The notes under the pieces are model-generated. The model made no database searches. It worked only from the letters and a program-made list of their open reading frames with translations, and had not been told where the DNA came from. From contig CAZKCA010000005.1 in NCBI GenBank assembly GCA_964551495.1, positions 5,705 to 69,704 on the forward strand: a DNA stretch of 64,000 nucleotides, in the 5' to 3' direction. Shown here piece after piece: positions 43,983-48,973 of this stretch; position 1 is the stretch's first letter, and each line of letters begins with the position of its first letter. Source of the stretch: an uncultured Candidatus Saccharibacteria bacterium. GTDB lineage: Bacteria; Patescibacteriota; Minisyncoccia; Phycocordibacterales; DATDWN01. A program made the position numbers and the translations under genes.

Positions 43983-44070
43983 AAAATAGATAATTAAAAT
44001 GATTAGCAAAAACTTTCTTCGGAAAGTTTTTTGTTTGCAAAGGTTTTACCTTTATTGTAAAGTAGCAGTT

Positions 44071-45132
44071 ATGTCAAAACACTATAAAGATATAAAAATT
44101 ACAAATCTTCCAGATAGAGAAATAGAAATAATCGGTGCCATCACTGTAGAAAAAATGACTTCTGCTAGAGATGAAGCTTTGAAAAAAATAACCGAAAATA
44201 TAGAGTTAGACGGCTTTAGAAAAGGCAATGCTCCTGTTTCTTTGGTTGCCCAAAAAGTAGGTGAAATGAAAATAATGGAAGAAGCAGCAGAGATTGCTTT
44301 AAATGACGTATACCCTTCTATTCTAGAGGACCACAAGGTAGATGCCATAGGTAGACCAGAAATACATATAACTAAAATTGCCCCTGAAAATCCTCTAGAA
44401 TTTAAAATAAAAACAGCCCTAATGCCAGAAGTTAAACTTGGTAACTATAAAAAAATCGCAAAAGAGGTTAAAAAAGAAGATAAATTTGAAGTGGAAGAAA
44501 AAGAAGTGGATGAAGCTATACTAAATATTAGAAAAAATGTTGCTCATCAAATGATGCATGAAAAAGAAGGTCTGCACGAACATGATCATAGTCACGGAGA
44601 AATAAAAGATGAAGACCTTCCAGAAGTAGATGAAAATTTCCTAAAAATGATTGGCGATTTTAAAGATGTAGAAGATTTGAAAACAAAAATCAAAGAAGGG
44701 ATACTGAAAGAGAAAGAAATGAGAGCCAAGGATAAAAATAGGATAGATGTTTTGGAAAAAATAATGGAAGAGTCTACCATAGAAATACCTAAGGTAATAA
44801 TAGATGGAGAATTGGACAAAATGATGGCTCAGTTTACAGACGAAATAGAAAGAGTTGGTATAAAAATAGAAGACTATTTAAAACAAATAAATAAAACCGA
44901 AGAAAACCTAAGAGACGAATGGAAAGAGACAGCTACAAAGAGAGCAAAATCTCAAATAATCCTAAATACAATCGCTAGAGAAGAAAAAATTTCTCCAGAC
45001 GAAGAAGAAGTTAAAAAAGAAATGGAACACATCCTCTCTCATCACAAAGATGCAGACAGATTTCGTGTAAGAATGTATGTAGAAACATTTCTAACAAACG
45101 AGTTGGTATTTAAATTCTTGGAAGATAAATAA
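44071..45132 (+). CDS. tig: Trigger factor (short form)
   Basis: DGFRKGNAPVSLV ribosome-binding motif region; upstream of clpP. Confidence 0.7.
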   Translation: MSKHYKDIKITNLPDREIEIIGAITVEKMTSARDEALKKITENIELDGFRKGNAPVSLVAQKVGEMKIMEEAAEIALNDVYPSILEDHKVDAIGRPEIHITKIAPENPLEFKIKTALMPEVKLGNYKKIAKEVKKEDKFEVEEKEVDEAILNIRKNVAHQMMHEKEGLHEHDHSHGEIKDEDLPEVDENFLKMIGDFKDVEDLKTKIKEGILKEKEMRAKDKNRIDVLEKIMEESTIEIPKVIIDGELDKMMAQFTDEIERVGIKIEDYLKQINKTEENLRDEWKETATKRAKSQIILNTIAREEKISPDEEEVKKEMEHILSHHKDADRFRVRMYVETFLTNELVFKFLEDK

Positions 45133-46102
45133 TTCCCCTCTCCAATTTGTAACTATTACCATGCCTCAAAAGTCCCAAATAAGATTGGGTGGTGGAATCT
45201 TTTCTGTTATTTAACAACAGATTTCTAAACATTTTCTTCTTCGTAGCTGTCCTCAAAACCCTATGCTTAGGAAAATGAACCCAACCAAGAAAATCTACTC
45301 CAGAATAAAATGTTTTTATAAACACCTTATTTGGATGTAAAGAGAGTTTTAATTCTTCTTCCAAAAAATTTTGTATTTTTGGAATAAGTTCCAAAAGATA
45401 ATTTTTACTTTGACTCAAGACAACAAAATCATCTGCATATCTTACATAATATTTTACTTTCATTTTGTGTTTTATCCACTGATCAAACTTATTCATATAA
45501 ATATTTACTAAAAGTTGACTAGTTAGATTACCTAAAGGCAAGCCTTTGCCTTCCTCTGTAGAATAGAAACTTTTTATAACTTTCTCCAAAAGCCAACTTA
45601 TATCTTTATCTTCCATACTTTCATTTAAAATTTTTAAAAGAATTTCTTGGTCAATAGAAGCAAAAAACTTTCTAATATCACATTTCAAAATCCAACAAGT
45701 TTTAGTATTGTTTTTAGAAACTTTATTTGCAAAACTTTTAAACCTTTTTATAGCTCTATGAGTACCTTTTCCCAAACGGCAGGAATATGAATCGTAAATG
45801 AAAATTTTATCAAAATGCGGGTACAAAATTCTATAAATTGAATGGTGTAAAAGTCTGTCCCTAACTAAAGCCTTGTGGATATTTCTAGGCTTAGGATCAG
45901 AAATATTAAAAGCTTTATAGTATCCATGAGTATATTTTTTATCTTTTAAATCATTGTGTAATTCAAAGATATTATCCATTAAATTAAGTTGGAATTCTTG
46001 AACATCTTTCTTTCTACTTTTACCCCTCAAAAATTCTTTCCAAGCCAGAAGCAAGTTTTCTAAAGAAATGATATCGTTATATGTAGCATAAATTTTTTTC
46101 AT
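45110..46102 (-). CDS. Diversity-generating retroelement reverse transcriptase
   Basis: RT motifs include VRYADDFVV and LPLGNLTSQLLVNIY (SQ-type motif 4 typical of DGR RTs). ~330 aa with no maturase or endonuclease domains. AT-rich like the host. Confidence 0.85.
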   Translation of the reverse strand: MKKIYATYNDIISLENLLLAWKEFLRGKSRKKDVQEFQLNLMDNIFELHNDLKDKKYTHGYYKAFNISDPKPRNIHKALVRDRLLHHSIYRILYPHFDKIFIYDSYSCRLGKGTHRAIKRFKSFANKVSKNNTKTCWILKCDIRKFFASIDQEILLKILNESMEDKDISWLLEKVIKSFYSTEEGKGLPLGNLTSQLLVNIYMNKFDQWIKHKMKVKYYVRYADDFVVLSQSKNYLLELIPKIQNFLEEELKLSLHPNKVFIKTFYSGVDFLGWVHFPKHRVLRTATKKKMFRNLLLNNRKDSTTQSYLGLLRHGNSYKLERGIIYLPRI

Positions 46103-46135
46103 TTTTATAATTACAACATATATAATTAAACTATA

Positions 46136-46518
46136 ATGACCCCCCCCCCGAAGCAAGACAGCTAAAGTTACTACCTATTATTAATAACGCTCTAGCTATA
46201 TATAAATTATGGCACACCTATTCAAATGATTTGCCCAAAAATTTACGTTATACATTGGGAGGAAAAATAGAAAATACTTTTATCTCAATACTGGAAAGCC
46301 TTTTTATTGCAACATATCAAAAGAAAGAAGAAAAATTGCCAACTATAGTTTATACTATGAAAAAAACAGATCTTCTTAAATTTTTCTTGAGAATTACATG
46401 GGAGCTACATGGGATAGATAATAAAAAGTATCTAGTTATTTCAGAAAAAGTTAATGAACTTGGGAGAATGATTGGAGGTTGGAAAAAAGGATTAGAAACA
46501 AAAACTCCCCGACCTTAA
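46136..46518 (+). pseudogene. avd: DGR accessory variability determinant (Avd-like four-helix-bundle protein); its ATG is out of frame with the body across a C9 tract
   Basis: Body frame reads ...LKLLPIINNALAIYKLWHTYSNDLPKNLRYTLGGKIEN...LGRMIGGWKKGL, an Avd / 23S-rRNA-intervening-sequence-protein-like pattern. The only plausible ATG (46136) is +1 relative to this frame, separated by cccccccccc at 46141-46149. The in-frame stretch begins 46126. Confidence 0.7.
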
Positions 46519-46541
46519 GCCGAGGAGAAAACCAACAGTTT

Positions 46542-46648
46542 CGAGAGAACACATGGTTGCCATCGTTCCACCTGTTCGGGTCCTCGACGGAGTTCGCATT
46601 GACATTCCAGCCGTCGTCGTTCCAGTTCACGTTGACCGCGCGAAGCAC
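46542..46648 (-). repeat. DGR template repeat (TR)
   Basis: 107 bp matching 47021..47127 except at 16 positions, all A in the minus-strand sense of this copy. Not inside a real gene: ORF-track 46451..46648 is just its AAC-rich translation. Confidence 0.85.
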
Positions 46649-47010
46649 TACCCTGCGTTATCGTATACAAGATCATCTATATCACCGCCAGCCAAACCAT
46701 GACCAGCTGAATTTTATCCGGGACATCAAAGTCCGCTAATCTCATATACCAATTCTTGTTATTTTTTTGAAGAGACTTTCCTCACTCTCACACAAGGTAT
46801 ACCCAATGTGACTCTCGAGAAAAATATCCTAAGACCATGACGTGAAAGCCGTAGCCGTCACGTAACACATGATTTCGGAAATAAGTATAGCAAGAGAAAT
46901 TTAAATATAAAAAATTGACCCCCAATCCGCCGAAGCAGACTGAGGGTCAAAGGGCCCAAGAGGCAAAGGATCAGGCTTGCGCCGTAGCCGAAGGTTCCGA
47001 GGGCACGATT

Positions 47011-47682
47011 TCAAGAATTGCGAGAGAACACAAGGTAGCCACCGCTCCACCTGACCGGGTCCACGACGGAGTCCGCATAGACAAACCAGCCGTCGTCGAG
47101 CCAGCGCACGATGACCGCGCGAAGCACACCAGCACTGTCCTTGATGTAGAAAACATTGGCGTAGCCGTTGTTCAAGAGAACACCTTCTTCACCATTCTTC
47201 TGCTTCTCCATAAGGGAGAGCACCTCCGACAGGGTGGTTTCAGCTTTCGCTTCGCCACCGAGTTCAGTGATGATCGGACCGTCCACCGATGCCTTGCGCA
47301 GTTTTGCATAGCGCAGGGTCTGTTCGCTGATCAGGTCTTCGGTTTTGCCGTCGCCGTTCAGGAACCATGAGGTGAAGTTGTCGCCAAGGTAGCTGATCTT
47401 CACCGGAGCGTTACGCTTGGTGTTGACCACAAACTTCTCTTTGGCGACGAGCTTGCTGGTGGTCGCATTGACCACGATCGTCGAGACGAGCTCGAGAATC
47501 GAGGGTGTGGGTTTCGGTTCGGCCACCTGCGTGACTTGGCTACTCCAACAGGGTTCCTTGCGGAGAAACCTCTTCAGTTCCTCTTCCCATTGGTCGCCTT
47601 CCTGGCCACCAAGGTTCACAATGAGCTGATTGAGCGGTCCGGTTGTGAATTCGCGGAGCGCCTTGCTGAGCATGGTATCCAT
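47011..47682 (-). CDS. DGR target protein with C-terminal variable C-type-lectin-like region
   Basis: 223 aa ending ...LRAVIVRWLDDGWFVYADSVVDPVRWSGGYLVFSRNS. GC-rich codon usage unlike neighbouring genes; followed by a hairpin and T-run. Confidence 0.75.
   Translation of the reverse strand: MDTMLSKALREFTTGPLNQLIVNLGGQEGDQWEEELKRFLRKEPCWSSQVTQVAEPKPTPSILELVSTIVVNATTSKLVAKEKFVVNTKRNAPVKISYLGDNFTSWFLNGDGKTEDLISEQTLRYAKLRKASVDGPIITELGGEAKAETTLSEVLSLMEKQKNGEEGVLLNNGYANVFYIKDSAGVLRAVIVRWLDDGWFVYADSVVDPVRWSGGYLVFSRNS
47021..47127 (-). repeat. DGR variable repeat (VR) at the 3' end of the target gene
   Basis: Counterpart of the TR with T/G/C at the 16 TR adenine positions. Encodes the C-terminal ~36 aa of ORF 47011..47682. 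Confidence 0.85.
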
Positions 47683-47826
47683 GGTCAGTTTTCCTTTCTA
47701 AAAAAAGCAGGTTTGTATTAGGCCAAATGTTGAAAAAGGCCTTCCTGCACCTTCTCTATATATTATATCAAATCTTAGTGTTTTTGTCAAATATAATTTT
47801 GCTACAATATAATAATTGTATTAAAA

Positions 47827-48534
47827 TTACTTACCTAATAGAAAAAGAGTAGAAACTGCCATACTTGCTGTTTCGCCCCTTAGAACAAGAGGTCCTAGAG
47901 AATATATTTCTATATTTTTTGATTTAAAAAACCCAATTTCTTCTTCTGAGAATCCCCCTTCTGGACCCAGGAAAACTAATGTTGAACCCTCTCGATCTAA
48001 AACTTCTCTGTCTAATAAAAGTCCTTCTGGATGGAGAGCTAAAACATTTTGAAAATCTTTTGGTATAGGACCTTCCAAAAACTCTGTTAATTTTACAGGT
48101 TCGTTTATTACCACCAAATCTCCCCTGCCAGATTGTTCAGCGGATTCAATGATAATTTTTTTAGCTCTTTCTATATTTAAATTTTTCTTTTCGCTTCTTT
48201 CAGAAATAATTGGTTGAATAAAAGAAACTCCAAGTTCTGTAGCTTTTTGTATCACAAGTTCTGTGTTTTCTTTTTTTAGGAGTGAAACTGCTAAACCTAG
48301 AAACCTTGCTGGTTTTGGTTTTTTCTTTTTGGAAACAATTTCTAATGTTGCACCTAAGTTTCTAAGACTTGATATATATGCAAGGTATTCAAATCCTGAT
48401 CCATCAAAAAGAATAACTTCACTTCCTACATTGTAGCGAAAAACATTCTTCCATTGGTGAACCAAATCTTTGTCTGAGATGTTTATGTTATCTCCATCTA
48501 TTTGTTTTTCTATATAAAATCTATGCAACCTCAT
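47827..48534 (-). CDS. rsmE: 16S rRNA (uracil1498-N3)-methyltransferase RsmE
   Basis: MRLHRFYI start and C-terminal RsmE-like SPOUT region. Confidence 0.7.
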   Translation of the reverse strand: MRLHRFYIEKQIDGDNINISDKDLVHQWKNVFRYNVGSEVILFDGSGFEYLAYISSLRNLGATLEIVSKKKKPKPARFLGLAVSLLKKENTELVIQKATELGVSFIQPIISERSEKKNLNIERAKKIIIESAEQSGRGDLVVINEPVKLTEFLEGPIPKDFQNVLALHPEGLLLDREVLDREGSTLVFLGPEGGFSEEEIGFFKSKNIEIYSLGPLVLRGETASMAVSTLFLLGK

Positions 48535-48571
48535 CTTATGGAATAGCATACGTCAAGTCCCCTAAAAAGAA

Positions 48572-48597
48572 AAGCCCGAGCACAGTGGCTCGGGCTA
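48572..48597 (-). terminator. Rho-independent terminator
   Basis: gcccgagccactgtgctcgggc hairpin followed by TTTTCTTTTT on the minus strand. Confidence 0.6.
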
Positions 48598-48599
48598 GG

Positions 48600-48725
48600 C
48601 AAACTAGAGGTGAGCTGGTCTGGCCTGGACCTGAGAAGATCCACATCTCACCGCCTGGTCAAAACTGGGAAACCCAGCTATAGGTGAGTGGCAAAAGCAC
48701 TCACCTGTTTGATTGTATTGGGAAA
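48600..48725 (-). ncRNA. Candidate structured small RNA (possibly SRP RNA / 4.5S-like)
   Basis: On the minus strand: nested helices ggtgagtg/cactcacc, ctggg/cccag and ggtgag...ctcacc enclosing CUCAGGUCCAGGCCAGACCAGC, which resembles the conserved SRP domain IV GUCAGGUCC...AGCAGC. Followed by terminator 48572..48597. Confidence 0.3.
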
Positions 48726-48798
48726 GTTTTTTCCCACACCTCTTACAATGAGTCCTCCTTTCACTGGACTCATCTTCAGATTTCTTCTTTTTGGCCAT
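48604..48798 (-). CDS. Doubtful 64-aa Cys-containing ORF (MAKKKKSEDESSERRTHCKRCGKK...)
   Basis: ORF exists, but its 3' two-thirds is GC-rich, highly self-complementary sequence; may be the translation of a structured RNA. Confidence 0.2.
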   Translation of the reverse strand: MAKKKKSEDESSERRTHCKRCGKKLSQYNQTGECFCHSPIAGFPSFDQAVRCGSSQVQARPAHL

Positions 48799-48973
48799 GT
48801 AAAACACCTTTCTCATATTATTATACACCATTTATATAATTTTTGTCAACAAAATTGCCTAAAAGATATTTTCTGTTATACTCATAACAGTTAACAAGTA
48901 AACAATCACCCTAAAGTAAAGCGTAGTTTACTATGGGGTAAAATACATTTAATAAATTATTAATAGAATAATA

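Follow-up and report, generated by a model that had tools for sequence, protein, structure and literature searches.

The retroelement locus and its gene order

The window analysed here, a stretch of 64,000 nucleotides of contig CAZKCA010000005.1 from an uncultured Candidatus Saccharibacteria bacterium, harbours a diversity-generating retroelement (DGR). It is composed of a target gene carrying a variable repeat (VR), a template repeat (TR), the accessory gene avd and a reverse transcriptase (RT) gene. The RT gene (45110-46102, minus strand) encodes a protein of 330 amino acids from the ATG at 46102, which matches the Pfam family RVT_1 (8.5e-27) and possesses the DGR-type (I/L/V)GxxxSQ motif in the form LGNLTSQ at residue 190. 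Its amino acid identity to around one hundred related RTs is 59-76%. The body of avd (46150-46518, plus strand), predicted to encode the four-helix accessory protein Avd, is inverted with respect to RT, TR and target, and its reading frame is open from 46138 up to the stop at 46518. The product matches Pfam bAvd with 44.8 bits (cutoff 40; 1.9e-11) and NCBIfam NF033474 (DivGenRetAVD) with 64.2 bits (1.1e-17), the latter under the equivalog cutoff of 80. The NF033474 match covers profile positions 1-104 of 104, corresponding to residues 12-117 of the read-through avd translation.

The target gene (47011-47682, minus strand) encodes 223 amino acids and carries the VR (47012-47127, minus strand) at its 3′ end, where the repeat encodes the C-terminus of the protein and ends at the stop codon. 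The TR (46533-46648, minus strand), with 29 adenines, is the direct repeat partner of the VR. Both repeats are 116 nt long and 84% identical, and all 17 core mismatches between them are at adenines of the TR, in the first or second position of a codon. The two sequences part after GTGTTCTCTCG, a candidate boundary, by sequence, resembling the initiation of mutagenic homing (IMH) site.

Related DGR loci (numbered L001 to L135) were gathered for comparison, 52 via the target protein and 80 via the RT. Counts below refer to the loci with an avd match (93), or to those used for the repeat tract (103), the hairpin at the TR end (84) and the reading frame (79). Their hosts are metagenome-assembled genomes (MAGs) of Patescibacteria labelled as Paceibacteria, Taylorbacteria, Sungbacteria, Vogelbacteria, Kaiserbacteria and 'Saccharibacteria'. 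The TR of the window is 97% identical to the TRs of L001, L009, L022 and L024. These four TRs are identical, yet the VRs of the four loci differ from each other at TR-adenine positions, which suggests, as an indirect sign, that mutagenic retrohoming takes place in the family.

The RVT_1 match with the motif, the repeat with TR-adenine-specific differences, the 3′ VR with an IMH-like boundary and an inverted repeat, and Avd were all found, as expected of a DGR. Judged from these sequence features, the locus is a complete and active-looking DGR of the kind typical for Patescibacteria (candidate phyla radiation).

The coordinates confirmed the arrangement given in the initial annotation, with avd on the plus strand, RT, TR and target on the minus strand, and the order target (VR), TR, inverted avd, RT. 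The same annotation had called this layout non-canonical, which holds in comparison with BPP-1 but not as a novelty. Wu et al. 2018 (NAR 46:11; PMC5758913) define architecture B3 as TR-(avd)-RT, with avd reversed, and give it a share of 90% in their candidate-phyla DGR set and near absence elsewhere. The window has the same core, inverted avd included, and one upstream target with a 3′ VR, and its layout shows no difference from B3. In every one of the 93 related loci with an avd match, avd likewise lies inverted between TR and RT. For Patescibacteria such a layout is ordinary, and it corresponds to the known B3 architecture. The cellular, non-viral context and the Patescibacteria hosts are likewise shared with B3 DGRs and with the Patescibacteria-restricted DGR clade 2 of Roux et al. 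2021.

Similar to BPP-1 (mtd-avd-TR-brt), the DGR of the window possesses TR-adenine-specific differences, Avd, an RT with the (I/L/V)GxxxSQ motif, a VR at the target 3′ end and a GC-rich hairpin downstream of the VR. Unlike in BPP-1, avd is inverted and located between TR and RT, the TR apparently forms its own unit ended by a hairpin and a U-run in place of an avd-TR-brt transcript, and the target has no detectable similarity to Mtd.

A repeat tract at the start of avd

Uncontrolled retrohoming is costly, and natural DGRs are mostly quiet. While the layout itself is ordinary for the group, the most interesting result of the analysis is a repeat tract at the start of avd. The likely start codon of avd is the ATG at 46136-46138 (plus strand), upstream of the tract. 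One A after this ATG and before the avd body lies a homopolymer of ten C (46140-46149; G10 on the RT strand), around 38 nt upstream of the RT ATG. The distance between the RT ATG (46102) and this nearest ATG on the avd strand is 33 nt. Thus, the divergent arrangement of avd and RT about 34 bp apart, proposed in the initial annotation, stands for the two ATGs, but in the assembled sequence the ATG at 46136 and the avd body differ in frame by one base. A tract of C11 or C8 would bring it into the avd frame. The next in-frame canonical start is the TTG at 46231, and initiation there drops around 20 residues of the Avd profile.

The C10 tract is the sole G/C run of at least 7 nt in the window. At the homologous position, runs of G7 to G12 on the RT strand were present in 88 of the 103 loci, and runs of at least 8 nt were found 85 times at the avd/RT junction versus four times elsewhere in 1.2 Mb. 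Four loci from three lineages possess dinucleotide repeats at the position of the tract, namely (CT)12 in L039, (GT)12 in L104 and L105, and (GA)9-10 in L107. Other loci lacking a G/C run carry degenerate C-runs, and only L037 and L101 are free of repeats, both with ordinary in-frame ATGs. The length of the tract is variable between close relatives: among 19 pairs of loci whose 200-nt flanks agree to 97% or more, 11 have tracts of unequal length. Among L079, L081, L084, L085 and L087, whose flanks are identical over 200 of 200 nt, n is 8, 11, 10, 10 and 10, respectively, and the alleles with n = 10 are in frame. Of the 79 loci, 15 have their nearest upstream ATG in frame, 26 need one more C and 38 one fewer.

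The tract lies in the likely 5′ coding region of avd, ahead of the Avd domain, and its length polymorphism gives in-frame and out-of-frame alleles, as in contingency loci. Unrelated repeat types at one position together with a hypervariable length are the signature of such loci. The contingency loci of Neisseria, Haemophilus, Campylobacter and Mycoplasma likewise possess a mono- or dinucleotide repeat just past the start codon, frame-shifting length variation between otherwise identical sequences, and unrelated repeats at one position. They differ from the present case in that the gene here is an accessory factor of targeted hypermutation in uncultured Patescibacteria, and the variation is known here from comparison of sequences between loci. 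We consider the tract a candidate phase-variation switch of avd, with stochastic on/off switching as the most likely reading. The repeat, mostly C7 to C12 but (CT)n, (GT)n or (GA)n in certain lineages, would switch avd stochastically, and with avd switched on or off, mutagenic retrohoming would be switched as well. If true, this represents a simple regulatory principle, in which slipped-strand phase variation is stacked on adenine mutagenesis.

It is possible, though doubtful in our view, that the tract is no switch, but a needed Pro-Pro-Pro in Avd or an RNA or DNA element of the RT leader, with length differences due to sequencing errors. The tract does read PPP in the conserved avd frame, it lies within the probable 5′ leader of the RT gene, homopolymers are error-prone in sequencing, and the nearest upstream ATG is in frame in a minority of the loci only (the 15 of 79 given above). 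However, the (CT)12, (GT)12 and (GA)9-10 repeats encode different peptides and cannot be homopolymer errors, and the exclusive use of CCC codons in genomes of 30-40% GC is unexpected under selection on the protein only. The five loci with identical flanks, with their lengths of 8, 10 and 11 and n = 10 in frame, also speak against it, as does the concentration of such runs at the junction. Transcriptional effects of the tract are possible, as it is also located in the probable RT leader or promoter, and some of the variation in homopolymer length may stem from errors of sequencing. We regard one programmed ribosomal frameshift at the C-run as unlikely, since all three frame states are common (15, 26 and 38 loci).

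No description of a tract at the avd start was found in the literature searched, which did not extend to Paul et al. 2017, and the available part of Wu et al. 2018 (PMC5758913) does not mention an avd-start repeat.

In L001, L008, L009, L013, L015, L021, L022, L033, L052, L086, L096, L131 and L132, a perfect hairpin of 9 bp directly adjoins the avd side of the tract, for example GAGAATTAC-CACAG-GTAATTCTC. Other loci possess compensatory variants of this hairpin, such as GAGAAGCAC...GTGCTTCTC and GAGGATTAC...GTAATCCTC. Judged by eye, the window has no clear counterpart. Two further loci, L034 and L035, are contigs of one MAG (MFD01112.bin.1.8) with matching target, avd and tract regions. Their 200-nt tract flanks are identical and both carry G11, which suggests a duplicated cassette or a split assembly.

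Composition and probable exchange of the target-TR module

The GC content of the whole window is 34.0%. With 28.3% in the RT gene and 29.5% in avd, the AT-rich composition of RT, avd and flanks described in the initial annotation was recovered. The same description had placed TR, spacer and target in the mid-50s, which is correct for the TR (56.0%) and the target (55.8%; VR 62.1%) but too high for the spacer between VR and TR, with 44% GC and a core of 34-42%. The composition is not uniform on windowed computation: the target lies around six standard deviations over the mean of all 672-bp windows and forms the sole such peak in the 64 kb. The GC content at third codon positions (GC3) is 0.71 in the target versus 0.16-0.27 in RT (0.24), avd, nusA, tig, rsmE, clpP and rny, and the compositional difference of the target lies at synonymous sites.

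The same profile was found in the related loci. Aligned on the RT start, the 93 loci have mean GC contents of 41-42% in the flanks, 36% in the RT gene and 39% in avd. On the module side, the TR zone reaches around 50%, followed by a dip to around 39% in the spacer, 53-60% in VR and target, and around 40% beyond the target. Across these loci, the GC content of the RT gene follows that of the flanks with a slope of 0.88 (r 0.84), whereas the module follows the flanks with a slope of 0.45. For 25 members of the target family found in the window, target GC averages 56.2 ± 1.5%, although the hosts span 32-54% GC (slope 0.08, p = 0.12). The mosaic thus characterises the clade at large and is not the imprint of one event. 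The composition of RT and avd tracks the host, while the block of target, spacer and TR has around 50-60% GC whatever the host.

The conserved GC-rich module spans 46446-47699 (minus strand) and comprises the ribosome-binding region, target, VR, terminator, spacer, TR, terminal hairpin and around 70 nt of the avd 3′ end. From 47699 to 46446 it shares 88% DNA identity over 1258 nt with L001, from a Paceibacteria MAG with flanks of 34% GC, and 83% with L002, whose flanks have 49% GC and where RT is absent nearby. Beside matching modules, the RT alignment reaches only 67%. The search for target and TR in other genomes, proposed along with the initial annotation, thus found the module at 83-88% DNA identity with diverged or absent avd and RT. 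Spacer and TR are 96-97% identical to the blocks of other genomes. On a sliding comparison with L001, DNA identity is 97-98% at the target 5′ end, 74-89% in the target body and 94-98% over the VR end, spacer and TR, and it drops abruptly to around 50% inside the avd 3′ end.

The neighbouring genes give a different picture. Compared with loci possessing the same target family, avd of the window has 38-42% and RT 61-63% amino acid identity, whereas the RTs closest to that of the window (68-76% identical) are located in loci with unrelated targets. Synonymous divergence (dS) of the target is 0.42-0.6, with a ratio of nonsynonymous to synonymous divergence (dN/dS) of 0.16-0.27, while synonymous sites of the RT gene are saturated; L008 was left out of the codon-alignment statistics because its alignment was disturbed by an indel. 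The module edges coincide in the comparisons with L001, L002 and L016, and L021, L022, L024 and L033 have a common extra breakpoint near target codon 72. Between L024 and L001, avd is 86% but RT only 61% identical, which points to another junction near the avd/RT boundary.

These discordant similarities of the module on one side and of avd and RT on the other indicate reassortment of three units, target-TR, avd and RT. Earlier descriptions of DGRs had their components largely co-evolving as a cassette. The data support module exchange as a recurrent feature of the clade and not as a single event. In the mechanism that we propose from the alignments, the 1.25-kb block at 46446-47699 would have an evolutionary history apart from that of the adjoining RT and avd, and would be drawn from a pool of modules swapped by recombination among Paceibacteria-type DGR cassettes. 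A GC-rich target-TR module would thus be joined to a diverged, host-like avd/RT backbone. The initial annotation had proposed that target and TR were acquired laterally and paired with a resident RT and avd. The contrast between 83-88% DNA identity in the module and amino acid identities of around 39% in avd and 61% in RT fits this proposal, but the view of a single event does not hold for a mosaic that is clade-wide. While the structure of the block, its recurrence and the discordant similarity are seen directly in the alignments, we infer the direction of transfer, with the module imported and RT and avd resident.

Several points weigh against exchange as described here. No mobility gene (integrase, transposase, phage or plasmid context) is present in the window, so that atypical composition and discordant similarity were found but a mobility function was not. 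Viral contigs yielded no relative of the target, and a related RT in only one case. The distance between the compared hosts was judged from missing synteny, GC content and record titles, and the continuity of the contig from the assembled sequence alone. The very close match in spacer and TR might in part be due to functional constraint on the TR RNA and not to recent common descent; nevertheless, the spacer is only 55-66% identical between L016 and L001 and is thus not universally constrained. Finally, all members of the target family keep a GC3 of 0.67-0.80 despite a dS of up to around 1.5, which makes recent transfer alone hard to accept and points to an extra force that maintains GC.

The high GC content may originate from a GC-richer pool followed by incomplete amelioration, or from selection for GC or biased gene conversion in a segment that often recombines. 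On terminal branches, most polarised third-position changes go from GC to AT (15 versus 3 in the window), with parsimony bias as a caveat, and this excess was seen in AT-rich and GC-rich hosts alike. It fits decay after import from a GC-richer pool, or a standing force opposing AT-biased mutation. Avoidance of adenine as the cause of the target-body GC was rejected: A (0.14) and T (0.15) are equally low at third positions, which indicates a general GC enrichment.

The force that maintains GC could also act without any recent transfer, on a block that was inherited together with RT and avd and kept GC-rich and slowly evolving by GC-biased gene conversion or by selection on nucleotides, that is, for TR RNA function, stable pairing of cDNA and target, or codon choice. 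This is in agreement with the clade-wide and nearly host-independent GC enrichment, with the third-position GC-to-AT excess, which looks as if a force opposed AT-biased mutation, and with the need of the TR to confine adenines to variable sites. We nonetheless regard it as unlikely, because RT and avd of the window group with lineages carrying unrelated targets and because identity falls sharply at recurring positions and not gradually. The divergent L016 and L001 spacers are not expected from such conservation either, and adenine avoidance fails for the target body. A further alternative, raised in the initial annotation, is an assembly chimera, in which reads of a GC-richer organism were joined into an AT-rich contig. 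The composition steps at 46450-46550 and 47700 are indeed abrupt, the block is very similar to sequences of other genomes, and there is no independent contig on record with exactly this target protein. However, the same GC step profile is present in independent loci from many studies and assemblers, and this recurrence makes a misassembly very unlikely, to the point that we give it hardly any weight. In addition, the avd ORF (open reading frame) and the full Avd profile are intact through the junction, the TR is correctly placed with respect to avd and terminator, as in 82 of 84 loci, and two crossovers are needed, of which the one at 47699 lacks any sequence in common with another locus that could mislead an assembler.

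Module exchange among cassettes therefore remains our preferred reading. In a combined proposal for this large clade, the repeat after the avd start would gate targeted hypermutation, and the cassettes would be built from three units (target-TR, avd and RT) that are shuffled between genomes at recurring junctions, the repeat among them. We see the balance for this proposal as roughly even. Neither a GC mosaic within the cassette nor the independent exchange of a target-TR block is described in the DGR literature examined, which did not take in Paul et al. 2017. A target-TR block that circulates apart from RT and avd, with its own composition in hosts of 32-54% GC, alters the reading of DGR phylogenies and host assignments. 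In practice, the GC step of such loci is of biological origin, and it should not be removed as if it were contamination.

The same GC-rich target without RT or avd nearby was found in many genomes (L002, L004, L007, L010, L011, L014, L017 and others). Some, such as L002, keep the TR and around 70 nt of the avd 3′ end, while others stop just past the hairpin terminator of the VR. These lone targets may be served in trans, or may be leftovers of decayed cassettes.

Transcription units, target protein and neighbouring genes

The predicted promoter of the target gene (47762-47790, minus strand) has the form TTGACA-17-TATAAT with a TG and 12 of 12 matches to the sigma-70 consensus. It sits in host-like AT-rich DNA outside the conserved block, and the region 47700-47830 has no homolog in any related locus. 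A predicted terminator (46905-46950, minus strand), consisting of a 16-bp hairpin (46950-46915) with a TTCG loop and a T-run, is located around 60 nt downstream of the VR. This hairpin is the counterpart of the inverted repeat downstream of the IMH in other DGRs, and in loci with the target alone the homology stops just beyond it.

A candidate promoter of the TR RNA (46884-46911, minus strand) has the form TTTATA-16-TATACT, with 9 of 12 matches and a TG before the second hexamer. This candidate is weak, and promoter-like matches in the region are not enriched over shuffled sequences. It is followed by a hairpin-containing TR leader (46754-46865, minus strand), which resembles the Rfam family RT-9 (RF03080) over the full model length below threshold (32.4 bits versus a gathering score of 46.1; E 0.0027). 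Similar to RT-9, the leader possesses a hairpin and then a conserved single-stranded stretch beside an RT gene. However, it lies below the gathering score, and 11 related loci gave no match at this threshold. The predicted 391-nt TR RNA shows a modest gain in stability over shuffled sequences (z = -2.2).

Directly after the TR, a GC-rich hairpin (CUCCUCGGCUUAAGGUCGGGGAG; 46495-46527, minus strand) followed by a U-run covers the last 24 nt or so of avd; the terminator scan placed the hairpin with its T-run at 46527-46505. A hairpin with a T-run at the TR end was present in 82 of 84 related loci versus 9 of 102 control regions. These hairpins are mostly of the form CUCC...GGAG, and their inner stems vary between loci but remain complementary. 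The hairpin and U-run are the probable 3′ end of the TR RNA, judging by this conservation. Consequently, the TR transcript would overlap avd by around 25 nt only, and antisense pairing would be minimal. The long overlap implied by the initial annotation, in which the TR transcript was antisense to avd, was not borne out, as the probable end lies within around 25 nt of the avd stop. We propose that the cassette is divided into separate transcription units. The target would be transcribed from a consensus promoter of its own up to the hairpin terminator past the VR, the TR would be a small RNA gene with a structured leader that ends in the conserved hairpin and U-run abutting the avd stop, and avd and RT would diverge from the 33-nt region.

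The target protein matches no Pfam or NCBIfam family. A profile search against solved structures returned noise only (best E 0.049), and the AlphaFold model, based on an alignment of 30 sequences, has a mean confidence score (pLDDT) of 47 and is unusable. Homologs are numerous, with 753 sequences at 65-84% identity, which belong to Patescibacteria assemblies wherever a source name is given. The target of the window stops 14 codons before most relatives (223 versus 237 amino acids), because a small indel just past the VR makes a TGA stop (47011-47030 in the window, compared with 10669-10714 in L001). The missing C-terminal tail reads VLESSEPSAPAQA in the relatives. Residues 1-46 of the target (47545-47682; MDTMLSKALREFTTGPLNQLIVNLGG...EPCW, predicted helical) are also present at the N-terminus of otherwise unrelated proteins beside related DGRs (L041-L055), and their DNA is 97-98% identical to L001. 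These N-terminal residues, around 46 in number, may form an adaptor or localisation domain common to such proteins, and possibly serve as a recombination arm.

A second and weaker rise in GC content (43-44%) was found at 48400-48850. Under it lies an ORF of 75 amino acids rich in Cys and His (48604-48831, minus strand), with weak Zn-ribbon matches only. No Rfam family was detected at threshold in 48400-48850, and the Rfam scan of the whole window detected four tRNAs only. The DGR cassette is packed tightly between the housekeeping genes tig and rsmE. The RT gene and the trigger factor gene tig (43999-45132) are convergent, and their 3′ ends overlap by 23 nt (45110-45132).

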